The notes beneath the pieces were generated by a model that saw only the letters and a list, made by a program, of their open reading frames with translations, was not told the origin of the DNA and made no database searches. Below, in pieces: positions 1-61,879 of a stretch of 64,000 nucleotides of DNA. The position numbers were made by a program, and so were the translations under genes. The stretch's first letter is position 1. Each line of letters opens with the position of its first letter. Source of the stretch: an uncultured Erysipelotrichia bacterium (GTDB lineage Bacteria; Bacillota_I; Bacilli_A; JBKEDG01); the NCBI GenBank assembly GCA_964593055.1, contig CAZQIG010000002.1, positions 28,631-92,630 of the forward strand. Reading direction: 5' to 3'.

Positions 1-1971
1 GAAATTGATGTTGACCTTGTTATCCCAGACCGTAGTCTTTCATTACGTGAGGGTGCAATCAAAACTTTTCAATTTGATGATAATTCAGTTTATTTTCAAG
101 AAATGCTAGCAATAAGCAAGCATTACGGTTTTGATATAGAATTACCAATTAATAAATGGAAAAAAGAGCATTTAGATTTTGCTTTATATGGTACAAACGA
201 TAAGGTAGAAGTTATCTATCGTAATAATAAAGGTGATGTAAGAAGCAGTAATAAAAAAGTTGAAGGACTAATTAATGGTTTAAATAGAAGATACTTAGAA
301 ACATCAAGCAATTGGATGCGCAATTACATTGAAGGGTTTATGCGTAACCATGTTTGTCCAGTTTGTAAAGGGAAGCGTTTAAAGCCGACTGCTTTAAGCG
401 TCCGTGTTGCTAACTTAAATATTGATGATTTAACACACTTAAGTGTGGAAAAGGCTTTAGATTTTTTTACTAATATTAATTTGAGTGACAAGCAAGAGCA
501 TATAGGTAAATTAGTTTTGAAAGAAATTATTTCAAGACTAACATTTTTAAATGATGTAGGTTTAAGTTATTTGACTTTGAATCGTTCTGCTGGAACATTA
601 AGTGGGGGAGAGTCACAAAGGATTAGGCTTGCAACACAAATAGGTAGTCAGTTGAGTGGCGTATTATATGTTTTAGATGAACCTTCAATTGGTTTGCATC
701 AACATGATAATGATCGCTTGATAAAGAGTTTGAAGAAAATGACACAATTAGGTAATACTTTAATTGTAGTAGAGCATGATGAAGATACGATGCGTGCTTG
801 TGATCATATTGTCGATATCGGACCTAGTGCAGGGATTCACGGTGGAGATGTTATTTATAATGGAGATTATAAAGGAATTCTAGCATGTGAAAAAAGTATC
901 ACAGGTCAATACTTGAGTGGAAAAAAAACTATTTCATTACCAAGTAGTTTGCGTGAAGGAAGTGGCGAGGAGTTAGCTATCCTTGGGGCAAAAGCCAATA
1001 ATTTAAAGAATGTGGATGTTAAGTTTCCTTTAGGAAAATTTATTTGTGTAACAGGTGTTAGTGGTAGCGGTAAATCGAGTATTGTCAATGAAGTACTATA
1101 TAAAGGATTAATGAAGCACTTACACGGAAGTAAAAATATCCCAGGTGAACATCGTGAAATTCAAGGAATTGAGCATGTTGATAAAGTTGTTAATATTTCA
1201 CAATCACCAATTGGAAGGACTCCACGTAGTAATCCTGTAACGTATATTGGAGTATTTGATAAAATACGTGATTTGTTTGCTAGTTTACCAGAATCTAAAG
1301 TTAGAGGTTTCAAAAAAGGACGTTTTTCTTTTAATGTTAAAGGTGGTAGGTGTGAAGCATGTAGTGGAGATGGTGTTGTAAAAATTGAAATGCACTTTTT
1401 ACCAGATGTTTATACAGAATGTGAAGTATGTCGTGGTAAACGCTACAATAGTGAAACGCTTGAAGTAAAATATAAAAATAAGGCTATTGCTGATGTTTTA
1501 AATTTAACAGTTGATGAAGCAGTCGAGTTTTTTGAAAATCATCCACAAATTAGTAAAGGACTAATTACTTTACAAGATGTGGGCTTAGGTTATATTAAAC
1601 TTGGACAGCAAGCACCAACTTTGAGTGGTGGAGAAGCACAACGTGTTAAATTGAGTAAAGAGTTACAAAAAAAACCGACAGGTAAGACAATGTATATTTT
1701 AGATGAACCAACTACGGGTTTACATGTCCATGATGTATCGCGATTAATTAAAATTTTACATCGTCTATGTGATCATGGAGATACATTAGTTGTTATCGAA
1801 CATAATTTAGATGTTATTAAAGTTGCTGATCATATTATTGATTTAGGACCAAAAGGTGGCGATGCTGGAGGAAAAGTAATTGCAACTGGAACTCCTGAAA
1901 AGATTAGTAATAACAAGAAATCAATTACAGGAAGATACTTGAAAAAGTATTTTGAGGAGGATAAAAAATGA
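1..1971 (+). CDS. uvrA: Excinuclease ABC subunit A (UvrA), C-terminal ~650 aa; 5' end lies outside the window
   Basis: The frame stays open from nt 1 (EIDVDLVIPDRSLSLREGAIKTF...). Zn-finger CPVCKGKR and CEACSGDG motifs, two ABC signatures LSGGESQR and LSGGEAQR, and Walker A GVSGSGKSS are present. Confidence 0.9.
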   Translation, partial: EIDVDLVIPDRSLSLREGAIKTFQFDDNSVYFQEMLAISKHYGFDIELPINKWKKEHLDFALYGTNDKVEVIYRNNKGDVRSSNKKVEGLINGLNRRYLETSSNWMRNYIEGFMRNHVCPVCKGKRLKPTALSVRVANLNIDDLTHLSVEKALDFFTNINLSDKQEHIGKLVLKEIISRLTFLNDVGLSYLTLNRSAGTLSGGESQRIRLATQIGSQLSGVLYVLDEPSIGLHQHDNDRLIKSLKKMTQLGNTLIVVEHDEDTMRACDHIVDIGPSAGIHGGDVIYNGDYKGILACEKSITGQYLSGKKTISLPSSLREGSGEELAILGAKANNLKNVDVKFPLGKFICVTGVSGSGKSSIVNEVLYKGLMKHLHGSKNIPGEHREIQGIEHVDKVVNISQSPIGRTPRSNPVTYIGVFDKIRDLFASLPESKVRGFKKGRFSFNVKGGRCEACSGDGVVKIEMHFLPDVYTECEVCRGKRYNSETLEVKYKNKAIADVLNLTVDEAVEFFENHPQISKGLITLQDVGLGYIKLGQQAPTLSGGEAQRVKLSKELQKKPTGKTMYILDEPTTGLHVHDVSRLIKILHRLCDHGDTLVVIEHNLDVIKVADHIIDLGPKGGDAGGKVIATGTPEKISNNKKSITGRYLKKYFEEDKK

Positions 1972-3185
1972 ATCCGATTTTAATAGAAGTAGGACCGTTT
2001 ACTATTACATGGTATGCGTTATTTATTGTTACGGGTATTGCTATAGGATATTACTTTATGATTCGTTTGTTTGAAAAGGCGGGGATTGACCGTGATCAAT
2101 TTGATTATGCGGGCGTTGTAGGAGTAATTTTAGGTATTATTGGAGCAAGAATTTATTATGTGTTATTTAATCTAGAGTACTATTTAGATAATCTCAATGA
2201 AATTATTAGAATTGATCAAGGTGGTTTAGCAATTCATGGAGGAATAATAGCAGGTTTTATTTGGGCTTTTTATTATACTAATAAACATAAGATTAATAAG
2301 TTTTATGTAGCTGATTGTTTAGCACTTGCTTTTATGATTGCTCAAGCAATCGGTAGATGGGGTAATTTTGTTAATAAAGAAGCTTATGGAGCAGCAACTA
2401 CAAGAGAGTTTTTAGAAAAACTGTACTTGCCAGAGTTTATTATCGAAGGTATGAATATAGCGGGTATTTATTATCAACCAACTTTTCTATATGAATCTAT
2501 TTGGAATGTAATAGGTTTTATTATAGGTTATTTTGTGATTTTCAAAAGTAAGCTTAAGCGTGGTAGTACTTTTGTTTTTTACTTAGTTTGGTATTCAATC
2601 GGAAGAATTTTCATCGAATCTTTGCGTACAGATAGTTTATATCTAGGAGAAATTCGTATAGCACAGCTAATTTCAGTAGTGATGATTATTTTAGGAATAG
2701 CAGTGTTTTTGTATTTAAATTTTTTTCAAAAACAAAATGATGTAAAAATGATTGTAGCAACAACAATTGTTGTTAAAAATGATACAATATTATTAATCAA
2801 GAAAAATCAAGGTAGTTATAAGTATGGAATGCCTGGTGGTAAATCAGAATATTTGGAAATTCCGATTAAAACGGCAGCTCGTGAATTTGCAGAAGAGACA
2901 GGTTTGAATTTTTTGAAGTTAAAATTAAAGGTTATTTCAGAGGTTAAAATGCCAAATAGAAATTATCAAATGTATACTTTTTTAGCTGAAAAATATAGTG
3001 GTGAGGCATTCAAAGATAATGCTGAAGGGAAGTTAGAATGGGTAAAAATTAATGAATTGCAAAATATTGATGTATATGAAGGTGATTTAGAAATTATTAA
3101 TTTTGCACTCAATAATGATGGTATTTTAAAAATGGAACACGAGTATGACGAAAATCGTAATTTAGTTGGAAGTAAACGTTTATAA
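1968..3185 (+). CDS. lgt: Prolipoprotein diacylglyceryl transferase fused to a C-terminal NUDIX hydrolase domain
   Basis: The N-terminal ~265 aa are multi-TM with the Lgt signature GRWGNFVNKEAYG. The C-terminal ~140 aa carry the Nudix box GGKSEYLEIPIKTAAREFAEETG. It is one uninterrupted ORF. Confidence 0.75.
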   Translation: MNPILIEVGPFTITWYALFIVTGIAIGYYFMIRLFEKAGIDRDQFDYAGVVGVILGIIGARIYYVLFNLEYYLDNLNEIIRIDQGGLAIHGGIIAGFIWAFYYTNKHKINKFYVADCLALAFMIAQAIGRWGNFVNKEAYGAATTREFLEKLYLPEFIIEGMNIAGIYYQPTFLYESIWNVIGFIIGYFVIFKSKLKRGSTFVFYLVWYSIGRIFIESLRTDSLYLGEIRIAQLISVVMIILGIAVFLYLNFFQKQNDVKMIVATTIVVKNDTILLIKKNQGSYKYGMPGGKSEYLEIPIKTAAREFAEETGLNFLKLKLKVISEVKMPNRNYQMYTFLAEKYSGEAFKDNAEGKLEWVKINELQNIDVYEGDLEIINFALNNDGILKMEHEYDENRNLVGSKRL

Positions 3186-4129
3186 TGTCATTTGCACAAG
3201 TTTTAAAATCAGAACTAATGTCTTTAAAAGTTTCTAAAATGGAGCAAAAATCGGAGCTTTCTGCACTTTTAAAATTAAATGGCTTATTACATTATCGAAA
3301 TAATAAACTTTCATTAGATTTTGTCACTGAAAATGCTTCGATTGCAAGACATGTTTTTACTTTGATAAAAGATGTTTATGATAGTACGAGTAAAATAACA
3401 ATTCAAAAATCTTCTTTTAAAGTAAAAAAAAGCTATATTTTACAAATAGAGAAAGATGTTGATGATATTTTAGAAGACTTAGAGTTGTATGGGTATGATG
3501 ATTGTAGTATATATCAATTGCGTAATTTAAAAACCGATGCTCAAAAAAAGAGTTATTTACGCGGAATGTTTTTAGCAAGTGGTAGTGTAAATAATCCACA
3601 AGTAGCAAAATATCATTTTGAAATTAAAGATAAAAACTATGCGCATAGTTTGCAAATTTTAGAATTATTAAATTATTTTTCATTTAATGCAAAGTTAATT
3701 GAAAGAAAAAGTCATTATGTTGTCTACGTTAAAAGTGCTGAAAAAATTGTTGAGTTATTTGCCTATATGGGTGCTGTGAAAGGGTTACTGTTTTTTGAAC
3801 AATTGCGATTAACACGTGATATAAAAAACAATACTAATCGTATTACTAATTGTGAACAAGCAAATTACGAAAAAAGTTTTACCGCTGGTAAGAAACAAGT
3901 AGATATGATTGAAAAAATTGATCAGTATGTCGGATTAGATACACTTGATGAGAAATTGCAAATAGTTTGTGAATTTAGGTTAGAGTATCCAGAATATTCT
4001 CTTCAAGAATTAGCAGATGTTATGGCTGATGAACTAGGAATTGAAATTAGCAAATCGGGATTAAATCATCGATTTCGTAAATTGAAGCAAATTTTTGAAA
4101 ATATTATTGAAAGTAACCATGATAAATAA
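3185..4129 (+). CDS. whiA: Sporulation/cell-division regulator WhiA-like DNA-binding protein
   Basis: 314 aa. The C-terminal HTH (LQELADVMADELGIEISKSGLNHRFRKL) and LAGLIDGDG-like fold spacing match WhiA. The position after uvrA region genes is typical. Confidence 0.8.
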   Translation: MSFAQVLKSELMSLKVSKMEQKSELSALLKLNGLLHYRNNKLSLDFVTENASIARHVFTLIKDVYDSTSKITIQKSSFKVKKSYILQIEKDVDDILEDLELYGYDDCSIYQLRNLKTDAQKKSYLRGMFLASGSVNNPQVAKYHFEIKDKNYAHSLQILELLNYFSFNAKLIERKSHYVVYVKSAEKIVELFAYMGAVKGLLFFEQLRLTRDIKNNTNRITNCEQANYEKSFTAGKKQVDMIEKIDQYVGLDTLDEKLQIVCEFRLEYPEYSLQELADVMADELGIEISKSGLNHRFRKLKQIFENIIESNHDK

Positions 4130-4157
4130 GTTGTTGAAAATAGTCAACAACTTTTTT
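4130..4157 (+). terminator. Intrinsic terminator after whiA
   Basis: GTTGTTGA-aaatag-TCAACAAC 8-bp stem followed by TTTTTT. Confidence 0.5.
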
Positions 4158-4370
4158 AGTAGAAAAATGCAGATAATTAGTACATTTACTTGATAAAATC
4201 ATTGTAATTTGGTAAATAAGTTTTTTAAAGATTAGGTCTAATTTCGTGGAAAAAATACGTTAACTTGAGATTTACTACACACAGTAGGAAAAAATGGAGC
4301 TTTTTTCTTCATCTCTTTGTAAAAAAAGGTTGAAAAAAAATCATTTATTAGTTAAAATAGAGTTGTGTAT

Positions 4371-4467
4371 GGAAACAAGAAGGTAACTGGTGTGCCTACC
4401 GGTCTTCAAAACCGGATTGCGGCATTAAATTGTCGTGGGTGGGTTCGATTCCCATTTGTTTCCGCCA
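4371..4467 (+). tRNA. selC: tRNA-Sec (selC), anticodon UCA
   Basis: 97 nt, GGAAACAA...TTGTTTCC-G-CCA. It has an 8-bp acceptor stem, a long variable arm, the anticodon loop CUUCAAA (TCA at 4406-4408) and an encoded CCA. It is adjacent to selenoprotein genes. Confidence 0.8.
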
Positions 4468-4512
4468 ATTATAATGATTAAATAAAATTGAATAAATTAA
4501 ATGGAGGTATTT

Positions 4513-5472
4513 ATGGCAGAGCTATATGATTTGATAATCATCGGAGCAGGACCAGCAGGACTATCAGCAGGGCTTTATGCAGGACGCGCAAAACTAAAAA
4601 CATTAATTTTAGAAAAAAAAGCACCAGGTGGTCAAATCGCAACAACACATGAAGTTGCTAATGTTCCAGGATCACTATTTAGTGATGGAAAGACGGCGAC
4701 TACGGGACCTGAATTAACAGCACGTATGGTTGAACAAAGTGATCAATTTGGAGCAGAGCGTGTTAGTGATGAAGTTGTTGAAGTTGATTTCACTAATGAT
4801 ATAAAAGTAGTAAAATGTCGTAAGCAAACATATGAAGCTAGAAGTGTAATTTTAGCTCCAGGTGCTGAGCCACGTAAGTTAGGTGTTTTAGGTGAAGCTG
4901 AGCTGACAGGTAAAGGTGTAAGTTATTGTGCTACTTGTGATGGAGCGTTTTTCACTGATTTAGAAGTATTAGTTGTTGGTGGTGGATACTCAGCAGCAGA
5001 AGAAGGACTGTTCTTAACTAAATTTGCGAGCAAAGTAACAATTTTAGTTCGTGAAGGAGAATTTAGCTGTGCCCAAAGTGTTGTTGATAAAGTACTAGCT
5101 AACGATAAAATCGAAGTACGCTACAATACAGAGATTACCAAAATTACAGGTGATGGTATCGTTGAATCAGCAACGTTGAAAAATAATGTTACTGGTGAAG
5201 AAGAAGAATACATCGTTGATGATGAGTTTGGAACATTTGGAATATTCGTATTCGTAGGATTCGTGCCACAAACAAATGTATTTAAAGATAAAATCACATT
5301 AGATAAATGGGGTTATATTCCAACAAGTGAAGATATGCAAACTGATGTTGCAGGAGTTTATGCAGCAGGTGATGTACGTCCTAAATCATTAAGACAAGTT
5401 GTTACAGCATTAAGTGATGGAGCAATTGCTGCAACAGCTGTTGAAAAATATATTGATGAGAAATTTCACTAA
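4513..5472 (+). CDS. trxB: Thioredoxin reductase
   Basis: The FAD motif GAGPAG and the redox-active CATCDG are present. GGAGG RBS lies 5 nt upstream of ATG 4513. The ORF track start at 4501 is probably upstream of the real start. Confidence 0.85.
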   Translation: MAELYDLIIIGAGPAGLSAGLYAGRAKLKTLILEKKAPGGQIATTHEVANVPGSLFSDGKTATTGPELTARMVEQSDQFGAERVSDEVVEVDFTNDIKVVKCRKQTYEARSVILAPGAEPRKLGVLGEAELTGKGVSYCATCDGAFFTDLEVLVVGGGYSAAEEGLFLTKFASKVTILVREGEFSCAQSVVDKVLANDKIEVRYNTEITKITGDGIVESATLKNNVTGEEEEYIVDDEFGTFGIFVFVGFVPQTNVFKDKITLDKWGYIPTSEDMQTDVAGVYAAGDVRPKSLRQVVTALSDGAIAATAVEKYIDEKFH

Positions 5473-5492
5473 TTTTTAGAAAGGAGGATAAT

Positions 5493-5801
5493 ATGGAACT
5501 ATTAACAAAAGATAATTTTGAAGAAAAAGTTAGCAAGGGAGTTAGTTTAGTTGATTTCTTTAGTGAAAGTTGTGAGCCATGTAAGGCTTTAATGCCACAT
5601 GTTGAAGAAATGGAGAAGAAATATTCTGAAATGCCATTTTATAAGTTAGATACAGCAGGAGCAAGAAGATTAGCAATTAAGTTAAGAGTAATGGGTTTGC
5701 CAACAATAGCAATATTTAAAGATGGTGAGAAAGTTGAAGAACTATCTAAAGATGATGCTACTGTCGAAAATATAGAGGCAATGGTAAAAAAATATTTATA
5801 A
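5493..5801 (+). CDS. trxA: Thioredoxin (CxxC = CEPC), grd-associated
   Basis: 102 aa with a thioredoxin fold, WCEPC-type active site and [11 protein letters not shown]. It lies between trxB and grdA as in clostridial grd clusters. Confidence 0.8.
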
Positions 5802-5818
5802 CAAGAGGAGGCACAAAA

Positions 5819-6289
5819 ATGTTTAGCGGTAAAAAAATTGTGATTATCGGTGACCGTGATGGAATTCCTGGTGAAGCTATTAAAGCATGTGTTGAAACAA
5901 TTGCAGATGCAGAAGTAGTATTCTCTTCTACGGAGTGTTTTGTCTGAACGGCTGCAGGTGCTATGGATTTAGAGAATCAAAAAAGAGTAAAGGAATTTGC
6001 TGAAAACTACGGTCCTGAAAATTTAGTAGTTATTTTAGGAGCTGGTGAAGGAGAAGCAGCAGGTCTTGCTGCTGAAACAGTAACAGTTGGTGATCCAACT
6101 TATGCTGGACCTTTAGCAGGTGTAGAGCTTGGTTTAAATGTTTTCCATGCTGTGGAAGAAGAATTTAAATCAGCAGTTGATTCAAGTGTTTACGAAGAGC
6201 AAGTTGCAATGATGGAAATGGTTTTAAATGTTGATGAAATCGTTTCAGAAATGTCAGAAATTCGTAAATCTGGTAGTAAATTTTTATAA
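5819..6289 (+). CDS. grdA: Glycine/sarcosine/betaine reductase selenoprotein A (GrdA), with in-frame UGA = Sec at 5945-5947
   Basis: ATG 5819 sits after a GAGGAGG RBS. The translation is [15 protein letters not shown]...STECFV-U-TAAGAMD, which matches the conserved GrdA CFVU motif. The downstream ORF 5963-6289 is in the same frame. Confidence 0.85.
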
Positions 6290-6337
6290 ATTCAATAGCA
6301 CATAAAGTGTAGGTTGCACTTTTGAATGGATAGGACA

Positions 6338-6370
6338 AAGAAGAGTGTTAACTCTTCTTTATTATTTAGA
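6338..6370 (+). terminator. Hairpin plus T-tract between grdA and grdC; partial terminator or attenuator
   Basis: AAAGAAGAGT-gtta-ACTCTTCTTT 9-bp stem followed by TTATTATTT. Confidence 0.5.
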
Positions 6371-6388
6371 TTAATTTGGAGGATATTA

Positions 6389-7912
6389 ATGAAAGCAGTT
6401 ATAAAAAATACGGCGTATTGCTTAGTTCATACGCCAGATATGATTATGCATCAAGGGACAACACAAACAACAGAGAAAATTGTAAATCCTGATAGTGAAT
6501 ATTTAAAGCAAATTAATAATCATTTACGTAGTTTTGAAGAAGTTGTTGATTATGCACCAAATCAAGCATATATTGGGAATCTTCATCCAAATGATTTAGC
6601 AAAAATTGAAATGCCATATGTTGGAAAATCAGTTGATGGGAAAAGACAAGGAAAATTTGGAGAAATTTTACCACAGATAGAATTTATTGCACTTTTAAAG
6701 ATTTCAGATGTTTTTGATTTAGTGTTATTAGAAGAAAATTTTGCAAAAGAATGTTTAGAAGCATATAAACAAAATGAAATTGCTTTTGAAGAAGATTTTG
6801 CTAAATTAGAAAATGGTGTAGCATTAAGTGTATTAGAAGAAGAAGTAAAAAATCATGCAGAAGCTATTTATCATGATAATAAGTTAGTAGGATGTGTTAA
6901 AGCTGCTCATGATTTAGATCCTAACTTAAATGCGCACGTTATGTTTGAAAACTTAGTAGTTAAGGCTAGTGGAGTACATGCATTTAGACACTTATTACAT
7001 AAAAATAATATTAATCCACAAATAATTGATTATGTAATTGAATGTAGTGAAGAAGCTTGTGGGGACATGAATCAACGTGGTGGTGGAAACTTTGCTAAGG
7101 CGATCGCTGAAAGTTGTGGAGCAATTAATGCTACAGGTTCAGATTTAAGAGGTTTCTGTGCAGCGCCAACGCATGCATTAATTAGTGCAGCATCTTTAGT
7201 TGCTAGTGGAACACATGATAATGTTGTAGTAGTTGCAGGTGGAGCTACTGCTAAATTAGGAATGAATGGTAAAGATCATATTAAAAAAGAATTACCAATT
7301 TTAGAAGATGTTTTAGGAAGTTTTGCGTTCATGATTTCTAAAAATGATGGTATTAGTCCAATTGTTAGAAATGACATTACTGGAAAACATACTGTTGGAA
7401 CAGGTTCTTCACCACAAGCAGTTATGACATCTCTTGTTTTAGAACCATTACGTGCAGCAGGATTAAAGATTACTGATATCGATAAATATTCTGTTGAAAT
7501 GCAAAATCCTGATATTACTAAACCAGCTGGTGCAGGTGATGTTGCAGAAGCAAATTATAAGATGATTGCAGCATTAGCAGTTATGAATAAAGAGCTAGAT
7601 CGTGCTGATATTAATAGCTTTATTGATCATCACGGAATGAAATCTTGGGCACCAACACAAGGTCATATTCCATCAGGAGTACCTTATTTAGGATTTGCGA
7701 TTGAAGATATGACTACAGGAGATATAAACCGTGCACAAATCATTGGTAAGGGATCATTGTTCTTAGGAAGAATGACAAACTTATTTGATGGTATTAGTGT
7801 TGTTTTAGAAAGAAATAGTGGAGAGTTAGATGAAGAAATTAGTGATGATAAAATCAATAAGCTAATTGCTAAAGCAATGCGTAATTTCGCTGAAAGTTTA
7901 AGTGAGGAATAG
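6389..7912 (+). CDS. grdC: Glycine reductase complex protein C, beta subunit (GrdC), KAS-III-like
   Basis: GGAGG RBS before ATG 6389. The thiolase/KAS-like active-site region GFCAAPTHAL is present. Size (~507 aa) and position after grdA fit. The ORF-track start at 6326 is unlikely. Confidence 0.6.
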   Translation: MKAVIKNTAYCLVHTPDMIMHQGTTQTTEKIVNPDSEYLKQINNHLRSFEEVVDYAPNQAYIGNLHPNDLAKIEMPYVGKSVDGKRQGKFGEILPQIEFIALLKISDVFDLVLLEENFAKECLEAYKQNEIAFEEDFAKLENGVALSVLEEEVKNHAEAIYHDNKLVGCVKAAHDLDPNLNAHVMFENLVVKASGVHAFRHLLHKNNINPQIIDYVIECSEEACGDMNQRGGGNFAKAIAESCGAINATGSDLRGFCAAPTHALISAASLVASGTHDNVVVVAGGATAKLGMNGKDHIKKELPILEDVLGSFAFMISKNDGISPIVRNDITGKHTVGTGSSPQAVMTSLVLEPLRAAGLKITDIDKYSVEMQNPDITKPAGAGDVAEANYKMIAALAVMNKELDRADINSFIDHHGMKSWAPTQGHIPSGVPYLGFAIEDMTTGDINRAQIIGKGSLFLGRMTNLFDGISVVLERNSGELDEEISDDKINKLIAKAMRNFAESLSEE

Positions 7913-7915: not shown

Positions 7916-9085
7916 ATGGGTTTAGAAAATAAAGTTGCAGAAGCTTTCAATAAGATTGCAACGCAAATTGAAACTGGTGATTTCGCTGATAAACTAAAAG
8001 TGGGAGTAACGCTTTTAGGGAGTGAACTTGGTGAAGAAGAAGTTTTACGTGGTGCAGAAGCAGCTGCGAAAGACGGACTATTTGAAGTTGTTGTCATCGG
8101 TAAACCGATAGAAACGAGTTTAGAGTTAATTGAAGTTGCTGATGAAAAAGAAATGCATACTAAAATGGAAGAGCTTTTAGATAGTAAATATCTAGCTGCT
8201 TGTGTTACACTACACTATAGCTTTGCAATCGGTGAGAGTACAATTGGTAAAGTTGTTACACCAGCAAAAGGTAGAGAAATGTATATTGCAACAACAACAG
8301 GAACTAGTGATACTAAAAGAACAATGGCAATGTTAAAAAACACTTTGTATGGAATAGCAGTTGCTAAAGCAGATGGGATTGAGAATCCAGCAGTTGGTAT
8401 TATTAATGTTGATAATGCTAAAACTGTTGAAAGATATTTGAAAAAATTAGCTGCACAAGGATATGCGATTAACTTTGCTGAATCTAAAAGAAGTGATGGT
8501 GGAGTAATAATGCGCGGTAATGATATTTTAATGGGTAGTGTAGATGTCATGGTTACTGATTCACTAACTGGAAATATCTTTATGAAGCTTTTATCTTCAT
8601 TTACAACAGGTGGTAGCTATGAAGCAAGTGGATCGGGATACGGTCCAGGAGTTAATTTTGAGAGTGAGCGTATTATAAATATTATTTCTCGTGCGAGTGG
8701 TGCAGTAGTTATTGCTAATGCAATTAAATATGCGCATACTTTAGCAAAAGGAAATTTACCAAAAGTTTTAAAAGCTGAGTATGAAAAATTACAAGCTGCA
8801 GGTTATACGGATATTTTAGCAGAAATTGAAAAGAAAGAAGCACCAAAGGCAGTAGAAGCTCCTAAAAAAGAAGTTGCTAAAGAAGTAGTTACTGCAGAAA
8901 TTAATGGAATTGATATCATGGATTTAGAAGATGCAGTAGCAGTACTTTTAAATGCAGGTATTTATGCTGAAAGTGGTATGGGTTGTACTGGGCCAATCGT
9001 ATTAGTTAATGATCAAAAATTAGATCAAGCAGTTGCTAAGCTAGCAGAAGCAGAGTTTATCGCACAAGAAGCAACGGGATGTTAA
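7916..9085 (+). CDS. grdD: Glycine reductase complex protein C, alpha subunit (GrdD), PlsX-like
   Basis: 389 aa with a PlsX-like fold (GIINVDNAKTVE...), immediately after grdC. Confidence 0.55.
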   Translation: MGLENKVAEAFNKIATQIETGDFADKLKVGVTLLGSELGEEEVLRGAEAAAKDGLFEVVVIGKPIETSLELIEVADEKEMHTKMEELLDSKYLAACVTLHYSFAIGESTIGKVVTPAKGREMYIATTTGTSDTKRTMAMLKNTLYGIAVAKADGIENPAVGIINVDNAKTVERYLKKLAAQGYAINFAESKRSDGGVIMRGNDILMGSVDVMVTDSLTGNIFMKLLSSFTTGGSYEASGSGYGPGVNFESERIINIISRASGAVVIANAIKYAHTLAKGNLPKVLKAEYEKLQAAGYTDILAEIEKKEAPKAVEAPKKEVAKEVVTAEINGIDIMDLEDAVAVLLNAGIYAESGMGCTGPIVLVNDQKLDQAVAKLAEAEFIAQEATGC

Positions 9086-9687
9086 TTGATGATAAATTAC
9101 AAAATGTTTCGTTAGTAGTTAAAGAATTAAAAGCAGGAAATGTTGTTTTTATACCGACAGATACAGTATATGGATTGGCGACTATTATCGATGATGTTGC
9201 AATATCAAAAATTTTTGCATTAAAAAAACGTGATAAAAAACCAATTGCTGTACTTGTTGATAGTTTAGAGCAAGCAAAAAAAATTGCTGAAGTTAATCTA
9301 GTAGCCTCTTTTTTAAGTAAGAAATTTCATCCAGGACCTTTAACGATAATAATGCCTAAGCGTATGGAAGTAAGTGATTTTTTGACAAGTGGACTTAATT
9401 CTGTTGGCATTAGAATTCCTAAAAACAAATTTCTAAGAGAAGTTTTAAAAATTACTGGTCCTTTAGCAGTTACTTCAGCTAATTTAAGTGGTGATAAACC
9501 TTTTGCTAGTGCAGATGAAGCTATGAAAGTTTTTAAATCGGAAGTCAAGTTGTATGTGCAAACAAAAGATACTTTTAGTAATGAAGCTTCAACTGTTATT
9601 GAACTTGAACCAGAATTAAAAATTTTAAGAGAAGGAGCAATAACTAAAAGTGCTCTAGAAGAAGTATTGAAAAAGGATAGTTTTTGA
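9079..9687 (+). CDS. tsaC: L-threonylcarbamoyladenylate synthase (YrdC/YwlC/Sua5 family)
   Basis: YrdC-domain motifs VFIPTDTVYGLA, KKRDKKPIAVLV and TSANLSG. Confidence 0.75.
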   Translation: MLIDDKLQNVSLVVKELKAGNVVFIPTDTVYGLATIIDDVAISKIFALKKRDKKPIAVLVDSLEQAKKIAEVNLVASFLSKKFHPGPLTIIMPKRMEVSDFLTSGLNSVGIRIPKNKFLREVLKITGPLAVTSANLSGDKPFASADEAMKVFKSEVKLYVQTKDTFSNEASTVIELEPELKILREGAITKSALEEVLKKDSF

Positions 9688-11890: not shown

Positions 11891-12244
11891 ATGGATAAAA
11901 TAAAACTTCTAAATATAATTAGTGAGAAAACTAGATTTAGAATTATTTGTCTATTAAGAGAAGAAAAAATTTGTGTATGTGAATTACAAGAATTGTTAGA
12001 TATAACACAAGTAGCTGCTTCTAAGCATTTAAAAAGGTTAAAGGAATTTGAAGTAGTTACTGCACAAAAGATAGGAAATAGAATTTTTTATACATTGAAT
12101 GATGATTTATATTGGATTTTTGATGTCATTAATATTATGATTCAAGAAGATAATCAGTTAAAAGAAGAACAAAGATTACTTAAGAATCATTTAGCAATTA
12201 GAGATGATAAGACTTATTCATGTCCGAGTGGTGATCAGCAGTGA
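11891..12244 (+). CDS. ArsR/SmtB-family metal-sensing repressor (CadC-like)
   Basis: 117 aa. The CVCEL metal-binding motif precedes the HTH ([13 protein letters not shown]). Its stop overlaps the ATPase start. Confidence 0.8.
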
Positions 12245-14409
12245 AAAAAGTATTCAAAATTGAAGGTATGACATGTGCTAATTGTGCACAAATTATTAGT
12301 AAAGCTTTTAATGAGAAAAGTGATATAAGTGCGGATGTTAACTTTTCATCAAGTAAGGTTACGGTTAAATATGCTGAAGATACTTATAGTATTAATGATT
12401 TAGAAGCAATTGTTGCTAGTGTTGGTTATAAGTTGATAGTCGATATAGATGAATATGATAGTCTTAGTTTTAAAAAATCGATGAAAAGAAATTTAATTAT
12501 CTCAATTATTTTATCTATTCCCCTTTTAATATCTATGTTAGGTCATTTGAAATGGTTTGATTTTATTTATGTTCCTAGTCTTTTCATGAATGGTGTTTTT
12601 CAGTTGATAGTTGCTTCAGTTATTCAGTTTTATATAGCTAAACAGTTTTATATTTCAGCTTATAAAGGACTTAAAAATAAAGTTTTAGGAATGGATTTAT
12701 TAATTGTTTTAGGAACTAGTGCAGCTTATTTTTATAGTGTATTTTTATTGTATAAACAGCTGTTTATTGAAAAATCGATGCATCCAGAATATTATTTTGA
12801 AATAAGTTCTATTATAATTACGATGGTTTTATTAGGTAATTATATTGAATTTATTGCTAAAGAAAGAACAACTAATGCACTAGGTGATTTAGCTAACTTA
12901 GTACCTAAAAAAGCTCGCTTATTAGTAGATGGTGATGAGAAGTTAGTAGAAACAAGCGATATTATAGCTGATAATTTGATGATTGTTTTAGCTAATGAAA
13001 AGATTCCAGTAGATGGGATTATTGATAAAGGTGATAGTAGTATAGATGAATCTTATTTTACAGGTGAAAGTTTACCTGTTAGTAAAAGTGTGGGAGATTC
13101 TGTCATCGGAGGAACGATAAATTTATCAGAAAGAATTATTGTCAAAGCTACTAGTGTAGGTGAAGATACTGTTTTAGCACAAATAATTCGAACTGTAGAA
13201 GAAGCTTCAAATACAAAACCTCCCATTCAACGTGTTGCTGATAAATTATCATCATACTTTGTGCCAATTATTATTTTAATTGCGATATTAAATTTCATGA
13301 TTCAGTTTTTCTTCTTAGGCTATGATTTTAATATAGTTTTTGCAAGAACAATTGCCATTTTAGTTATTTCATGTCCGTGTGCACTAGGCTTAGCAACCCC
13401 AACATCTATTTTAGTAGGAAATGGATTAGCTGCTAAAAATCATATTTTATATAAAGGCGGAGAATTTTTTGAGCTTGCTAATAAGATAGATGTAATATGT
13501 TTTGATAAAACAGGGACATTGACAGAGGGTAAACCTAATGTAACTGATTATATAGGAAATGATGAAGTTTTACAGTATGCTTTTAGTTTAGAAAAAGAAT
13601 CAACACATCCTATTAGTTTTGCTTTAATAGATTATTGTCAAGATAAAGCTTTTATTAAAAGTGATGTTGAAAAGTTTGAGGTTATTAAAGGTAAAGGTAT
13701 TAAAGGAATAGTTAATGGTAAACAAATCCATATCGGGTCATTAAATTTAATTTTAGATTTAGGTCTTGATTATAGTAAGTATTATCATAAGTATGAAAGT
13801 TTAGTTAATATGGCTAAAACTACAAATTTTATTGTTGTTGATAAAGAGATTAAAGGGTTATATGCTGTACGTGATGATATAAAATCAACTTCAAAAAAAG
13901 CTATTGAAAAAATAAAGGCAAAAGGATTGATTCCGATTATGATTACTGGTGATAATGAAAATGTTGCTGAAGCTATTGCTAAAGAAGTTGGAATTAATGA
14001 ATATTATGCTAATACTTTGCCAAATGATAAAAGTAAAATTATTAAAGATTTGCAAAGTCAAAATCATATAGTTGCTTTTGTTGGTGATGGTATAAATGAT
14101 GCACCTGCATTAAAAGTATCTGATATTGGTATTGCCATGGGTCATGGTACAGATATAGCAATTAATTCAAGTGATGTAACACTTATGAGTCATAATTTAG
14201 AACTCGTAGTAACAGCAATAAACATTTCTCAAGCAACTTTAAAAAATATTTATCAAAATTTCTTTTGGGCATTTTCTTATAATTTAGTAGCAGTACCACT
14301 TGCAGCGGCCGGATTCTTATCAATGGTTTTGGCAGCAGGGGCGATGGGATTTTCTTCGATAATGGTTGTTTTAAATGCTCTTAGGTTAAAAAAGAAAAAA
14401 GTTGATTGA
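12241..14409 (+). CDS. Heavy-metal translocating P1B-type ATPase (CPC motif; Cd/Zn/Pb type)
   Basis: HMA domain [11 protein letters not shown] in the TM6 region ([11 protein letters not shown]), [15 protein letters not shown]. Confidence 0.9.
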
Positions 14410-14433: not shown

Positions 14434-14970
14434 ATGAATAAGAAAATTGTTTTTGGAATAATAGCAATTATATTGTTTTTTGTAGGTATTTTTGCTCTTG
14501 ATCCTAAGGAATATAGTAATTTAAAAAAGTTTGTTGAAGAAAATGATGTAAGAACGGTTGTCGCTAAACTAGAAAATGGTGAGGTTGAAGAATTAAATGG
14601 TGTTGCTTATCCTAATTATATAGAAGTAAGTAATGAAAGAGAAACAGTAGTTTTAGAAGACGATAATAATGAATTTTATGTATCAATAGCTCCATATTTT
14701 GATACAACCCATTCATGAACTATTCATTATTTGACAGGATGTCAAGGTGAATTAAAAAATTATGAATTAAATGTTGTTATTAAAACTATTGATGGTAGAG
14801 TACTATATGATGGTAAAAAGACAACTTATAGTAATGGATTTATGGGATTTTGGTTACCAAGAAACGTGGAAGCAATTATTGAGTTAGAAAGTGAAGGCAA
14901 GGTAGGTGTTTATGCACTATCAACATTTAGTGATAGCCCTACTTGTATTACAACCTTTCAATTAAAATAA
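14434..14970 (+). CDS. Membrane-anchored hypothetical protein split by one in-frame TGA (14716-14718); candidate selenoprotein, otherwise a nonsense pseudogene
   Basis: ORFs 14434-14718 and 14731-14970 are in the same frame and separated only by TGA. A hairpin TTGACA-GGA-TGTCAA begins 12 nt after the TGA. The organism decodes Sec (selC and grdA are in this window). Confidence 0.35.
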
Positions 14971-42762: not shown

Positions 42763-43128
42763 ATGCGAAGCTTAAAAGAAGGAAGTATTATAGTAGTTAA
42801 AGTAAAAAGTATTAAAAAATATGGGTTCTTTGTTAGTATAAATGAAGAGCTCGATGGTCTAGTACACATCTCTGAAATATCGGATAATTATGTAAAATCA
42901 ATTACAAAATTTGTTGAAGTAGGTGAAGTTATTTTAGCGAGGGTTGTCACGTATAGACAAGGTAAAATGAATCTTTCTATCAAGAATATGAATTATAAAT
43001 TACGCAAGACTTGTGTTAGATATTTAGAAGGTGACTATGTAGTAGATGAAAATTTTACCACAATTAAAGCTAAGCTTGGATTGTGGATAAAGGAGTATGA
43101 AAGAAATGATGAAATTAGTAAACGCTAA
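42763..43128 (+). CDS. S1 RNA-binding domain protein (general stress protein 13-like)
   Basis: 121 aa; S1 fold GSIIVVKVKSIKKYGFFVSI...GLVHISEIS. Confidence 0.7.
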   Translation: MRSLKEGSIIVVKVKSIKKYGFFVSINEELDGLVHISEISDNYVKSITKFVEVGEVILARVVTYRQGKMNLSIKNMNYKLRKTCVRYLEGDYVVDENFTTIKAKLGLWIKEYERNDEISKR

Positions 43129-43537
43129 TGAAGTAAAAGAAGTTTCAATTGAACAGTTGCATAATCAAAAAACAGTACTGTTTTTTTATCCAAAAGCTAA
43201 TACGCCAGGTTGAGTAGTAGAAGCTACAGACTTTTCCGGGTTGAAGAGTGAGTTTTTGGCTAGAGGATATCAGTTAATCGGTGTGAGCCGTGATAGTGTT
43301 AAAGCACAGCAAAATTTTATTGCTAAAAGAGAATTGACGATTGATTTGATTGCTGATGTTGATAGTGAGTTATGTACTTATTTTGAAGTATTGAAAGAAA
43401 AAAATATGTTTGGTAAATCATACATTGGAATTGAACGTTCGACATTTGTATTAGATGAAAACTTTCAGATTATTAAGGAATATCGCAAGATAAAAGTTGC
43501 AGGACACGCTAAAGAAGTTTTAGAAAATTTAAATTAA
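43106..43537 (+). CDS. Bcp/PrxQ-type peroxiredoxin with in-frame UGA (43211-43213) replacing the peroxidatic Cys; predicted selenoprotein
   Basis: ATG 43106 gives MMKLVNANEVKEVSIEQLHNQKTVLFFYPKANTPG-U-VVEATDFSGLKSEFLARGYQLIGVSRDS..., against the canonical FYPKDxTPGCTxE. It is in frame with the annotated ORF 43241-43537. A G.U-containing hairpin CTTTTC-cgggtt-GAAGAG starts 17 nt after the UGA. Confidence 0.6.
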
Positions 43538-57134: not shown

Positions 57135-57163
57135 TTGACAGCATTAATATAAAATGTGATAAT
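57135..57163 (+). promoter_or_regulatory. Near-consensus sigma-A promoter for the effector gene (TTGACA-17-TGtGATAAT)
   Basis: -35 TTGACA at 57135-57140 and extended -10 TGnGATAAT at 57155-57163. This places ATG 57156 inside the promoter, so the real start is ATG 57222 after the GTGGGGGGA RBS. Confidence 0.55.
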
Positions 57164-57221
57164 GAAAATATATTTTAAAGACTACTTATGTTATCAAAAA
57201 ATTTTAAAGTGGGGGGATTTA

Positions 57222-60200
57222 ATGAGAATAACTAAGCAAAAGTGGTACTGTGTTAGTGGTGTAGAAAATGAGCTGTTTTACGACAAGTATAATAGAAGAT
57301 ATTTTTATTTAAAAGAAAATAATCAAAGGTGTGTAATTGATAAAAACGATTTTTACATACAATTAAAAACAAGAGGGAATAGTCAAAATAAAGAGTTTAA
57401 TATTCTAAAAAAGAAAAATATTTACAAAAAAGATATGTCTAGTTATAAAAAACTTGAAGAAAAAATAGATTTCAAAAGTAAAACTAAACTATATTTTAAA
57501 AGAGGTGGAAAATATTCTGAAATTTATGATAATGAAAAACAGTTAGCAGTAAATCGTCATAATTTTATTTGTGATATTAATAGTATTCATAACGAATTTT
57601 TAAAAGAAACTATGAAGCATGAAAAAGTTGATGAAGATATCTGTAATAATTTTACCGATAAATATTTTAATGTAATTGACAAATATACGAAAGAAAGTGA
57701 AGAAGTTATAAGTGATAAAGCGTTACGCGATTCAAGGTCTGTATCTATTTCAAAGATTTTGAAGCATAATGAAAAATCTTTAATAAATAGATTTGGAACA
57801 AGAGCTATTGAATGTGAAATTCAATTAGCAAAATCAATTATTAATTTTCATAAGAAACAGAAGCTTTCCAAAAAACTGAATGAATTTTATACAGAATTAA
57901 CTAAAGAATATAACAGAAGTATGAAAAGATATGGATTAACTTCTAAAAATTCAAAAAGTAATAGAAATGATATTATTGAAAGTTTGAATTATAATAAAAT
58001 TTTAGAGATTAGTACATTTAATGATTTAAAAAATAAAATCGGTGTAGTAATTGAAGCTTATGACTTATCTAAATTATGTGTAAAAATTATTGATAATAAA
58101 GCAACATATTATAAAGAGTTTAAAAATCCTAATGGAAAAAATAATATTAAATATACTTTATTTGATGACATAAGAAAACATTATCAAGACACCTTTAAAA
58201 ATTTTGATGAAAAAATGAAAGACACTATTAATAATAGCTGTTTAATTGTTAAAGAAAATGAATATAAATTTGTTTTGAAGTATGTTCATAATTATGTATT
58301 AGGTAGAGCAAGAAAAATAAAAAAATATGTTGAAAGTAAAGATTTAGAACTTGAGGATGACTTTATTGAAAAGGCTTTTGAACACAAGAAATTAAAAACA
58401 AAAATAGAAAATAGGGTTCTTTCTACTTTTAATACTCAACTGAATAGTATGAAAAAAGAAAAAGCCTTAGATTTGACTGAAAATCTAGAAAAAGAAATTG
58501 GGTTGCAGTTAGCAAAAATTCAAGATACGTATTCTAATAAATTAAATAATTTAATTTACGAAACAGTATACAAATTTTTATCTTCCATCGATAGAAAAAA
58601 TGATATATTGGGAGCAAGTGAATTATGTGACTTAAAGAAGGATATAGGAGAAACAAAATTTGAAAGTAATAAAGAACTATATATATCAGCATATTTGTTG
58701 AGAAACTATACAATTCATTACCAAAATTTTGATAAACAAAATGAAATTAGAGATGATAATGCTTTTAGTTTGAAAAATTATTGCCCCAAGTCATCAGTAG
58801 ATAAAATAAGCAAATATGTTGTGTCACAGTTTGAGTATAATAATACATTTAAATATATTGATAATAATATATTTAAAAAATCAATAGACTTACTTCAATT
58901 AAATCATATTAAGGATTTAATATTTCCAAGGTTTGATAAAATTTTCAAACTTATAGTAAATGATAAAAATTTTAAATGTTTTGAGCCTAAATTATTTTTT
59001 GATTTAAATGATGAGTTTAAATTTTGTTATAAATACTTATTGAATAGAATTTATTCACAGGGATTTGCAACAAACACTGATAAAACTAAAAATTACCTTG
59101 AAAAAAAACAGCAATTTATGAACGAGTGTCATGGTAATGTAGTAATGGTAGAAAAACAAATAATTGAGCTTATTGCTCAAGATTTTATAGAATATTTATC
59201 TGATAATAAGATTGAATTTAATTTGAATGATGATTTTGATAAATGTAATATAGATGAAAATAAAAGATACTTAGAATTAAAGTTAAAGAAATTTGAATTT
59301 TCAGATTATAATTCAATTAAAGATTCAAATGATTTTATTATTAGTATATATCATCTAGGAATTAATGCAACAGTTGAAATATTGAGTGAGTTATTGCAAA
59401 ATACTATAAAATATAAGTCCCTTTTAATAAGTTTGAAAGAAAAGTATAAAGAAGAGCATAAGATTTTTTTAGAAGCTTTCCAAAAAGTAACTCGATTTAA
59501 TGAAGAATTTTATACTAGTATTGAGTGTTATTTGAGCGAATTTGAGAAATTAATAAAAATATTAAAAAATGAATTGATGATTAAAAATTATGATTTAAAT
59601 AGTAATTTAAATTGTCATAATAAATTCGAGAGTGAATTATTGAAAATTTTCAATAAAAATAGCAGGGTAGAATTTAAAAGTCTTGATGAAGTAAAATATC
59701 AAAAAGCGAATAAAAATAATGAAAGTATTGAAGTGAATCTTTGGAAACCAGAAAGTAAAACTAAAAATGTTGATATAATAAACAATAAGTTTTTAATTAG
59801 AGAGTATACTAATGGAACACTAAAGTTCAGCTTAGATTTACATACTCATTGTATGAAAGAAACAAAATTGTACTATAATGAAATTATTGCTGAAATAAAT
59901 ACGTTTAATAAAACTATATCTAGGGATGATTTATTAGAAAATAAAGATTTGATAGATACAATTATGGGTTCTAAAGATAATCATAAGCAATTTGAAAGTA
60001 TGTCTAGAATAGTATATTATCAAAAAATGAGGCAATTAATCCAGGGTAAATATAAAGAGCTTTATAACGAAGCAAAAATGAATAATAAAAATAGGAGAAT
60101 TTTATACTCGGATATTTTTAAAGATAATAAAGAATTAGTAAATAAAACAAGCGCAATTCACAAAGAAGCAAGTGATGGAATAAATAAGTATAATTTTTAT

Positions 60201-60683
60201 ATGAACTTGCTTAAACTTACTACAATTAGTAAAATTAAAAAATATAATAGTGAGTTTCATGCAAGGTTTATGTCTTGGATATTTCAAGGTGAAAAATTTG
60301 CTGGCAATATTTATAATACTAAAAAACCTATTGGGCAATTATTGTCGAAAAGGTCTATTGATTCAAATAATAATTTGAATCAATTTAGAAATGACATTGC
60401 TCACTTGAATAATTTTCAAGAAAATAATAAAAGCTCTAAAAGCTATAGTGACTATATAGATGATATCAAAAGATATAACTCGTATAGTACTATGAAAAGA
60501 AAAGAGGTATCTATTGTTATTGATAAAATTAGAACAAAGTATTTAGCTTCTAATGATAATATACACAAAGTTTTTAATAAAAAAAATGGGTATGAGTGTG
60601 ATTTAAATAACAATAGTGCTGAAGAAGTAAAATATTATTTGGAATTTGAAAAATTTAATTGGGATAGATCAAACAATGTCTAA
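57222..60683 (+). CDS. cas13a: Type VI-A CRISPR effector Cas13a (C2c2)-like, RNA-guided RNase with two HEPN R-x4-H motifs
   Basis: ~1153 aa, Lys/Asn-rich, with no RuvC or HNH signatures. RNYTIH is at codons 494-499 (nt 58701-58718). RNDIAH is at codons 1056-1061 (nt 60387-60404). cas1-cas2 and a co-oriented array with a Leptotrichia-Cas13a-like repeat lie directly downstream. Confidence 0.85.
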   Translation: MRITKQKWYCVSGVENELFYDKYNRRYFYLKENNQRCVIDKNDFYIQLKTRGNSQNKEFNILKKKNIYKKDMSSYKKLEEKIDFKSKTKLYFKRGGKYSEIYDNEKQLAVNRHNFICDINSIHNEFLKETMKHEKVDEDICNNFTDKYFNVIDKYTKESEEVISDKALRDSRSVSISKILKHNEKSLINRFGTRAIECEIQLAKSIINFHKKQKLSKKLNEFYTELTKEYNRSMKRYGLTSKNSKSNRNDIIESLNYNKILEISTFNDLKNKIGVVIEAYDLSKLCVKIIDNKATYYKEFKNPNGKNNIKYTLFDDIRKHYQDTFKNFDEKMKDTINNSCLIVKENEYKFVLKYVHNYVLGRARKIKKYVESKDLELEDDFIEKAFEHKKLKTKIENRVLSTFNTQLNSMKKEKALDLTENLEKEIGLQLAKIQDTYSNKLNNLIYETVYKFLSSIDRKNDILGASELCDLKKDIGETKFESNKELYISAYLLRNYTIHYQNFDKQNEIRDDNAFSLKNYCPKSSVDKISKYVVSQFEYNNTFKYIDNNIFKKSIDLLQLNHIKDLIFPRFDKIFKLIVNDKNFKCFEPKLFFDLNDEFKFCYKYLLNRIYSQGFATNTDKTKNYLEKKQQFMNECHGNVVMVEKQIIELIAQDFIEYLSDNKIEFNLNDDFDKCNIDENKRYLELKLKKFEFSDYNSIKDSNDFIISIYHLGINATVEILSELLQNTIKYKSLLISLKEKYKEEHKIFLEAFQKVTRFNEEFYTSIECYLSEFEKLIKILKNELMIKNYDLNSNLNCHNKFESELLKIFNKNSRVEFKSLDEVKYQKANKNNESIEVNLWKPESKTKNVDIINNKFLIREYTNGTLKFSLDLHTHCMKETKLYYNEIIAEINTFNKTISRDDLLENKDLIDTIMGSKDNHKQFESMSRIVYYQKMRQLIQGKYKELYNEAKMNNKNRRILYSDIFKDNKELVNKTSAIHKEASDGINKYNFYMNLLKLTTISKIKKYNSEFHARFMSWIFQGEKFAGNIYNTKKPIGQLLSKRSIDSNNNLNQFRNDIAHLNNFQENNKSSKSYSDYIDDIKRYNSYSTMKRKEVSIVIDKIRTKYLASNDNIHKVFNKKNGYECDLNNNSAEEVKYYLEFEKFNWDRSNNV

Positions 60684-61572: not shown

Positions 61573-61879
61573 AACAATTTTATTTTATGATTTTGCGTGT
61601 AGGACAAAGAAGGAGAAAAGGGAGTTTCAAAGATTTAATAAAGGAATAAAAAAGCTTGGATTTATGATGATACAAAAATCAGTATATGTAAGAAGCATTA
61701 AAAGCAAGGAAGAGTATGCAAATATAAAAGCTAGAATAATGATAAGAGAGAATAATAACAATGATATAAGAATAGTGCTTTTAACTAATTCAAAGTATGA
61801 AGAGATAGAGATGATATCAGGACAAGAAACCTTAACAGATATGGTATTGACAAGCAAAAAAAATGTAATTAATTTATAA
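61556..61879 (+). CDS. cas2: CRISPR adaptation protein Cas2
   Basis: ~107 aa, MSSKYKTILFYDFACRTKKEKREFQRFNKGIKKLGFMMIQKSVYV (Cas2 beta1-alpha1-beta2 pattern). GGAGG RBS. It overlaps the cas1 end. Confidence 0.75.
   Translation: MSSKYKTILFYDFACRTKKEKREFQRFNKGIKKLGFMMIQKSVYVRSIKSKEEYANIKARIMIRENNNNDIRIVLLTNSKYEEIEMISGQETLTDMVLTSKKNVINL

Follow-up and report, generated by a model that had tools for sequence, protein, structure and literature searches.

A 64,000-nucleotide stretch of contig CAZQIG010000002.1 from an uncultured Erysipelotrichia bacterium, referred to here in its whole length as the window, carries selC, the gene for selenocysteine (Sec) tRNA, directly in front of genes for thioredoxin reductase (trxB), thioredoxin (trxA), selenoprotein A (grdA), and component C (grdC and grdD) of glycine/sarcosine/betaine reductase. 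Judging from this sequence and that of its relatives, we consider it probable that the region is a working Sec-decoding locus, in which a functional bacterial tRNA-Sec and a Trx/GrdA/GrdCD module are expressed from a transcript that begins with selC. The case for a working Sec system is indirect and strong, drawing on three intact selenoprotein genes and on a tRNA-Sec gene that bears the marks of selection. The tRNA-Sec itself, GrdA as a CxxU selenoprotein, and the Trx/GrdA/GrdCD module are textbook knowledge. What is new is modest: selC as the first element of the module in two lineages, where it is probably co-transcribed with the genes that follow; an uncultured, deep-branching, AT-rich host; and a conserved hairpin on the 3′ side of grdA with the shape of a selenocysteine insertion sequence (SECIS).

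The tRNA-Sec gene and the gene cluster that follows it

ARAGORN detects four tRNA genes in the window and calls one of them, at 4371..4467 on the forward strand, tRNA-SeC with anticodon TCA (UCA in the RNA). A first-pass annotation of the window had described this gene as a 97-nt tRNA with an 8-bp acceptor stem, a long extra arm, and anticodon UCA, 45 bp upstream of trxB. The ARAGORN prediction and the cloverleaf bear out each of these features, with the trxB ATG at 4513. The Rfam covariance model for tRNA-Sec, RF01852, matches 4371..4463 with 71.5 bits (gathering score 47; E = 1.2e-12) and was retained over the generic tRNA model of the same clan, identifying the locus as tRNA-Sec rather than as tRNA-Ser or a pseudogene. 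In the cloverleaf, the 8-bp acceptor stem and a 5-bp T stem make up the 13-bp helix of the bacterial 8+5 architecture. The D stem has 6 bp, with A15 bulged, around the 4-nt loop UGGU; the anticodon stem has 5 bp and the loop CUUCAAA; and the extra arm has 6 bp. All 30 of the 30 pairs are standard, the discriminator base is G73, and the CCA end is encoded. The G73 and the long extra arm are consistent with recognition by SerRS.

Comparison with relatives shows that this structure is maintained. A sister lineage, represented by loci from three SRA runs (L010 to L012) and with a GrdC 77% identical to that of the window, has a selC with the same 8+5 helix that differs at 7 of 97 positions. Six of these seven differences form three double compensatory changes from the window to the sister: A-U to G-C at acceptor pair 5:89, A-U to G-C at D-stem pair 16:23, and C-G to U-A at extra-arm pair 50:65. 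The tRNA-Sec gene of a further locus, L144, is 91% identical to the window selC and adds a compensatory pair in the anticodon stem, where C30-G44 is replaced by U-A, bringing the total to four double changes over three lineages. Because six of the seven differences from the sister are compensatory, the structure of selC is evidently kept by selection, and the changes in the sister and L144 rule out a pseudogene.

The genes behind selC were identified by a search with NCBIfam profiles, for which GrdA was scored with its U written as C. The first is trxB (4513..5472, forward strand, as are all genes of the cluster), encoding a thioredoxin reductase of the grd-associated type (TIGR01292, 339 bits, cut-off 343), with its start codon preceded by a GGAGG ribosome-binding site. 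Next is trxA (5493..5801), which encodes a clostridial-type thioredoxin with active site CEPC (NF047697, 137 bits, cut-off 140). Both scores are slightly below the equivalog cut-offs, and the gene order agrees with that of known grd clusters. The usual thioredoxin motif is WCGPC; the window TrxA reads S-C-E-P-C at this site, and its homologue in locus L074 reads G-C-V-P-C.

The third gene, grdA (5819..6289), encodes selenoprotein A and has an in-frame TGA at 5945..5947. Its translation begins with MFSGKK, ends with SKFL, and reads ...STECFV*TAAGAMD... around the TGA, as the first-pass annotation had it. The equivalog model NF040748 matches residues 3-151 with 260.6 bits, twice the cut-off of 130, and the match spans the UGA, which is the predicted Sec codon of the CxxU redox site (CFVU). 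Beyond it lie the genes for the beta subunit (grdC, 6389..7912, NF040746, 794 bits) and the alpha subunit (grdD, 7916..9085, NF040747, 537 bits) of component C, the acetyl-phosphate-forming part of the reductase system, and then tsaC (9079..9687, TIGR00057), which shares 7 nt with the end of grdD and probably closes the transcription unit. The earlier view of a trxB-trxA-grdA cluster headed by tRNA-Sec is therefore right in its gene order and too short in its extent, since the cluster runs on beyond grdA into grdC, grdD, and tsaC. It represents the core A/C/Trx module of glycine/sarcosine/betaine reductase, not the whole reductase.

Decoding of UGA and the RNA around the Sec codon

The UGA of grdA stands in the same alignment column, that of the CxxU motif, in 8 of 8 related loci. 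To gauge how the codon is used otherwise, stop codons were tallied in a crude set of 60 non-overlapping open reading frames (ORFs) of at least 100 aa in the window (28.9% GC): 38 end in TAA, 12 in TGA, and 10 in TAG. TGG occurs 67 times in the same ORFs and is the normal Trp codon. Because TGA serves as an ordinary stop and Trp is encoded by TGG, the in-frame TGA of grdA points to recoding and not to a reassigned genetic code.

A scan for reading frames that become long only by reading through TGA yielded two further credible genes. One encodes a CueP-like protein (14434..14970, TGA at 14716..14718; Pfam PF21172, 136.7 bits; NF038094, 141 bits) and has two genes directly before it, one for an ArsR regulator at 11891..12244 and one for a heavy-metal P-type ATPase at 12241..14409. 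In an alignment to Salmonella CueP (4gqz), the U of this protein falls on the first Cys of the HPC...GCQGE stretch. By eye, the protein has an N-terminal hydrophobic segment that could be a signal or lipoprotein sequence. CueP is unmentioned in a 2026 selenoproteome review. The other gene (~43097..43537, TGA at 43211..43213), recognized by alignment to BCP 5iox, encodes a Bcp/PrxQ-type peroxiredoxin in which the U of FYPKANTPG-U-VVE aligns with the Cys of the TPGC motif, which we take to be the peroxidatic Cys. Gene callers broke this gene in two. The first-pass annotation had reasoned that UGA is read as Sec in this organism and that the tRNA and grdA back two other in-frame TGA candidates in the window. 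The first claim is supported by the tRNA-Sec gene, the conserved CxxU UGA, and the use of TGA elsewhere as a stop, and the second is sound, with both U residues aligned to functional Cys residues. An uncultured, very AT-rich bacterium thus appears to use UGA both as a stop and as a Sec codon, and at least three of its genes (grdA and the CueP-like and Bcp-like genes), all split by gene callers, deserve annotation as selenoproteins.

A different reading of the in-frame TGAs is that UGA has been reassigned, as to Trp in Mycoplasma and Spiroplasma or to Gly in Gracilibacteria, making them plain sense codons. Such a code would suit a genome this rich in AT, and the nearest named relatives of its DNA polymerase (PolA) come from metagenome-assembled genomes (MAGs) labelled Mollicutes or Tenericutes. 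Yet TGA ends 12 of the 60 long ORFs at the expected ends of their proteins, the in-frame TGAs that restore full-length homologues fall only at Cys or Sec redox sites, and there is a dedicated tRNA-Sec gene. The stop-codon tally, together with the 67 uses of TGG for Trp, refutes UGA as Trp or Gly, and we give reassignment next to no chance.

Gram-positive SECIS elements have a stem of ~6-7 bp and a GGU loop, located 13-16 nt after the UGA (10.1101/2022.07.06.499078). In grdA, the candidate region for an in-frame bacterial SECIS (bSECIS) is 5943..5973 on the forward strand, a stretch of invariant nucleotides with a weak and unproven hairpin in which UCUGAA and UUUAGA would pair, enclosing a 2-bp apex (GC/GC) and the loop AGGU. 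Across the 8 aligned grdA loci, no base changes in the 20 nt around the UGA. These 20 nt include synonymous codons that are rare in the window, Val-GTC, at 6% of the Val codons, and Thr-ACG, at 15% of those for Thr, and the invariance of these two codons points to a constraint at the RNA level. It is the one observation that speaks for a bSECIS in grdA. Folding and covariation do not: the 60 and 81 nt after the UGA fold no better than shuffled sequence (z = +0.4 and +0.8, respectively), and RNAalifold finds covariation in 0 of 21 consensus pairs over the 8 loci. In the CueP-like gene, a convincing 7-bp stem with a GGA loop starts 16 nt after the UGA, with a marginal folding score (z = -1.8). 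The Bcp-like gene has a 7-bp stem with one G·U pair and a CGGGUU loop, a structure that starts ~26 nt after its UGA, and the folding of this region is not significant (z = -0.7 to +0.2).

Transcription of the operon and the hairpins between grdA and grdC

The signals around selC suggest a transcription unit that opens with the tRNA. Upstream, a terminator-like hairpin with a 10-bp stem and a T-run (4128..4153, forward strand) follows whiA and closes the preceding unit, and a promoter-like site, TTGAAA-17-TAAAAT (4330..4358, forward strand), ends 12 nt short of the tRNA. Between the window and the sister, the region upstream of selC is unalignable except for the -35 and -10 boxes of this site, GGTTG and TTAAAATA, which are conserved. 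Downstream, the 45-nt spacer between selC and trxB (4468..4512) is AT-rich, has a minimum free energy of 0 kcal/mol, and contains the ribosome-binding site of trxB; no promoter or terminator-like site is predicted within it. In the sister, this spacer is 23 nt long, barely more than a ribosome-binding site. Because no terminator precedes trxB and the spacer of the sister is so short, selC is likely to be co-transcribed with trxB-trxA-grdA. Transcription from the one promoter at 4330..4358 would begin a few bases before selC and continue into trxB-trxA-grdA, and the usual processing enzymes would cut the tRNA out of the operon mRNA at its 5′ end. The supply of tRNA-Sec would in this way be tied to expression of what would be the main selenoprotein of the cell.

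The thrU-tyrU-glyT-thrT-tufB operon of Escherichia coli is a tRNA-mRNA co-transcript. The arrangement in the window resembles it in having a tRNA gene at the 5′ end of an operon with one promoter, and presumably in the release of the tRNA by processing. It differs in that its tRNA is a specialised decoder for a gene of the same operon and in that co-transcription is here deduced from sequence signals. The operon that begins with selC would be a compact case in which a decoder tRNA is joined to the mRNA that is its principal client.

Two hairpins occupy the spacer between grdA and grdC. The first, AAAGUGUA-GGU-UGCACUUU (6304..6322, forward strand), has an 8-bp stem closed by a GGU triloop and the shape of a SECIS; it begins 14 nt after the TAA stop of grdA and ~360 nt downstream of the Sec codon. 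The second (6337..6360, forward strand) is terminator- or attenuator-like, with a T-rich tail. Both are kept in four lineages, namely the window, the sister, L008/L009, and L013-L015, and they are restricted to the clade in which GrdC has at least 72% identity to that of the window. In the first hairpin, 17 of 19 bases are invariant inside a spacer that is otherwise unalignable, and the variable stem pair covaries: the window has U·G, the sister U-A, and both L008 and L014 have C-G. Against an expectation of 0.01 occurrences, the window contains the motif once, and among 143 loci searched it is confined to this clade; canonical operons, in which grdB follows ~25 nt after grdA, do not have it, nor do the high-GC loci L074 and L124. 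In the second hairpin, the sequence of the stem varies by lineage while its complementarity is kept. A permissive Rfam search of 5800..6450 returned noise only, leaving both hairpins outside any Rfam family. Hairpins with a GGN triloop are mildly enriched over the whole window (11 against 6 ± 2.3), so the shape is not diagnostic and the argument turns on conservation.

By this conservation, the hairpin at 6304..6322 is probably a functional RNA element. Like Gram-positive SECIS elements and the genuine SECIS of grdB in this clade (CGUUGC-GGU-GCAACG, starting 15 nt after the UGA), it has a stem closing a GGU triloop, with a similar apex. Unlike Gram-positive elements, it lies after the stop codon, ~360 nt from the UGA, at a distance from the stop that ranges from ~14 to 66 nt by lineage. 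With this position it falls outside the spacing of a SECIS, and it is therefore classed as SECIS-like only. As a SelB-binding element of a bacterial 3′ untranslated region, it could bring SelB and Sec-tRNA to the grdA mRNA, in which the in-frame SECIS looks very weak. Alternatively, it could make read-through of the neighbouring terminator, and with it transcription into grdC-grdD, depend on the availability of Sec-tRNA. We regard a SelB-binding site with either function, aiding Sec insertion in grdA or gating read-through into grdC-grdD, as a speculative and rather unlikely proposal. If it were true, the element would be one of few natural bacterial structures of the SECIS type to work outside the coding region and, combined with the co-transcription of selC, would turn the operon into a self-contained unit for tuning the synthesis of selenoproteins. 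The pair of hairpins after grdA probably attenuates read-through into grdC-grdD-tsaC.

Relatives, alternative readings, and other features of the window

The arrangement is unusual. For the window GrdC, the database holds one identical entry, followed by proteins at 77% (P0002), 74% (P0003), and 72% (P0004) identity and then by clostridial proteins at ~70%. The sister has lgt, nudix, whiA, a small ORF, tRNA-Sec, trxB, trxA, grdA, grdC, grdD, and tsaC, so that the order whiA-selC-trxB-trxA-grdA-grdC-grdD-tsaC is common to both lineages. Searches of species representatives in GTDB with GrdD peptides returned relatives at 49-56% identity only, so the window organism is not among these representatives; five such relatives have no tRNA-Sec within 10 kb of the grd locus. 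Two of the relatives, Romboutsia (L005) and Faecalimicrobium (L002), have the canonical order grdX-trxB-trxA-grdE-grdA-grdB-grdC-grdD. This Peptostreptococcaceae operon shares homologous families with the window (GrdD 54-56% identical) and identical nucleotides around the UGA of grdA; it differs in having grdX, grdE, and grdB, the last directly after grdA, and in having neither selC within 10 kb nor the hairpin.

The trxB-trxA-grdA-grdC-grdD module is found elsewhere behind grdX-grdE-grdB (L008), behind a betaine-type B pair and a BCCT transporter gene (L015), and alone (L013, L014), and GCA_002919055.1 contains module-only copies. Eubacterium acidaminophilum and other Stickland fermenters have trxB-trxA-grdA(-grdC-grdD) gene sets. 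These gene sets resemble the window in the order TrxB, TrxA, selenoprotein A, component C, in the CxxU motif encoded with UGA, and in the separability of protein B. In contrast, the unit in the window opens with tRNA-Sec, and its module sits between whiA and tsaC on a Bacilli-like backbone.

Scanning metagenomes with a pattern specific for tRNA-Sec gave at least 120 loci, and in 109 of those listed ARAGORN reports a tRNA-SeC. In none of these 109 does selC directly precede trxB-trxA-grdA. At least four of them (L022, L074, L087, and L124) have selB-selC followed by grdX-grdE-grdB and, where the contig allows, run on into trxB-trxA-grdA-grdC(-grdD); the L074 supercluster was verified with family models. 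Among the matches listed, L101 has the order grdC-grdD...selB-selC, and L066 (1..6000) has aspS-selC-trxB-selA-selB, with trxB between selC and selA, so that trxB there too comes directly after selC. In the sel-grd superclusters, as in the window, selC is on the same strand as the grd genes and immediately upstream of them, whereas it ends a sel operon (selA-selB-selC) there and grdX-grdE-grdB precede trxB; in the window, selC abuts trxB and neither selA nor selB is present. In a related AT-rich lineage, a grd supercluster of ~13 kb (L144, 8278..21026; also L145 and L146) has the order grdX-grdE-grdB, tRNA-Sec, orf196, betaine-type GrdE'/GrdH, BCCT transporter, and trxB-trxA-grdA-grdC-grdD. 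Linkage of selC with grd genes thus appears as a recurring theme in these sequences, and the window arrangement probably goes back to a sel-grd supercluster that was trimmed, with its place of insertion between whiA and tsaC. The window selC is at most 78% identical to the 109 metagenomic tRNA-Sec genes listed, and the grd-linked ones are not distinctly closer than the others, so no donor can be inferred.

PolA is 60% identical to that of the sister and at most 51% identical to all else, with taxon-named matches only to Mollicutes/Tenericutes MAGs, at 46-49%, which places the organism weakly near these MAGs. The contrast between GrdC and PolA would agree with a horizontal origin of the block and echoes the argument for a joint spread of Sec decoding and a selenoprotein gene (PMC1794560), an idea that an operon beginning with selC would fit. 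Base composition lends this no independent support: the GC profile shows no clear island, with 32-39% GC in the grd block and similar values in uvrA. The Mollicutes/Tenericutes group was reported in 2006 to be without SelD (PMC1794560), and our literature search found no report of Sec or glycine reductase in Tenericutes or Izimaplasma.

Several results weigh against a complete and working system transcribed from selC. No selA, selB, or selD gene was found in the 64-kb window, in the 10 kb that follow its 3′ end (which hold a thioredoxin-like gene, pyrG, pgpA, cdaA, ybbR, glmM, glmS, and genes for a hydrolase and a Mur ligase), or in the ~4 kb beyond its 5′ end (full-length uvrA and the gene for glyceraldehyde-3-phosphate dehydrogenase). 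GrdA needs GrdE/GrdB or an equivalent for substrate loading, and none of GrdE/GrdB, GrdG/GrdF, and GrdI/GrdH is encoded in the window or in ~14 kb of flanking sequence; grdX, too, is missing from the cluster. A search with the GrdB of L008 revealed a family of 341-residue GrdB proteins from AT-rich relatives, three of them in stand-alone TDE2712-family-grdX-grdE-grdB clusters (L142, L147, and L149) and one in the large L144 supercluster, and returned no match from the samples that hold the window organism; ranking the GrdB candidates by amino-acid composition was uninformative. To these can be added the poor folding and lack of covariation after the UGA of grdA, the derivation of co-transcription from sequence signals, and the L144 locus, where selC has a terminator upstream and a hairpin with a U-run downstream, so that linkage does not always mean one transcript. 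For the locus to work as we propose, SelA, SelB, and SelD would be encoded elsewhere in the genome, as would protein B (GrdE/GrdB or the betaine or sarcosine equivalent), for which such a location is plausible by analogy with relatives.

These gaps could instead mark a lost system, with a grdA pseudogene split by a stop codon, a tRNA relic, and grdE and grdB already gone. The grdX, grdE, and grdB genes of canonical operons are indeed not at this locus, and the Sec machinery was not found nearby. Against decay, however, the five ORFs are intact and score as full-length equivalogs, with TrxB and TrxA near threshold; all relatives conserve the protein sequence that follows the TGA; the tRNA has evolved by compensatory change; a lineage whose GrdC is only 77% identical retains the layout; and module-only copies are normal in genomes with protein B encoded elsewhere. 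We consider decay very improbable. A less remote alternative accepts a working locus and holds that the linkage is merely historical, selC and the grd module having been left over from, or transferred with, a sel-grd supercluster. There, selC would have its own short transcript, and the operon would be expressed by read-through or from a weak internal start, with no coupling between the two. Superclusters in which selC abuts grd genes do exist elsewhere, the L144 selC has terminator-like hairpins on both sides, and horizontal acquisition of the block is suggested by the ~70% identity of GrdC to clostridial proteins set against at most 51% for PolA outside the sister. But neither the window nor the sister has a terminator after selC, the 23-nt spacer of the sister is too short for a promoter, and the adjacency of selC and trxB is kept despite divergence down to 60% PolA identity. 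On balance we doubt that the linkage is only historical, while allowing it an appreciable minority share of the probability, and prefer a functional locus with selC at the head of the operon transcript.

Upstream of selC, the window contains a partial uvrA, an lgt-Nudix fusion, and whiA. In the fusion (1968..3185), lgt, for prolipoprotein diacylglyceryl transferase, and a Nudix/MutT-like domain form one ORF of 405 aa, while in the sister (L010) lgt and nudix are two distinct overlapping genes. The backbone has Bacilli-like synteny, with tsaC...glyA-upp-atp, polA-fpg-coaE-dnaB-dnaI, and cdaA-ybbR-glmM-glmS, and a Mur ligase gene is present.

A CRISPR-Cas locus at 57156..62604 consists of a gene for an 1175-aa protein, cas1 (matching a type II-like model), cas2, and an array of ~9 repeats. 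The 1175-aa protein matches nothing in NCBIfam, PADLOC, Pfam, or PDB sequences and contains two R-N-x-x-x-H (HEPN-like) motifs. The 36-nt repeat, GATTTATTACACCCCAAAAACGAAGGGGACTAAAAC, resembles the repeats of type VI-A (Cas13a) systems, and the protein may be a very divergent Cas13-like effector.

The window organism recurs in three highly fragmented sibling assemblies (GCA_019826105.1, GCA_019826165.1, and GCA_019826185.1) and in SRR15291766/67. Relatives occur in further assemblies of very large size (the GCA_0407773xx-6xx series, in which contig numbers exceed one million), and their sources may therefore be host-associated or metagenomic. Within the window, 55 of the 60 long ORFs are on the forward strand, and the GC skew is positive over the first 16 kb, the stretch that was profiled.

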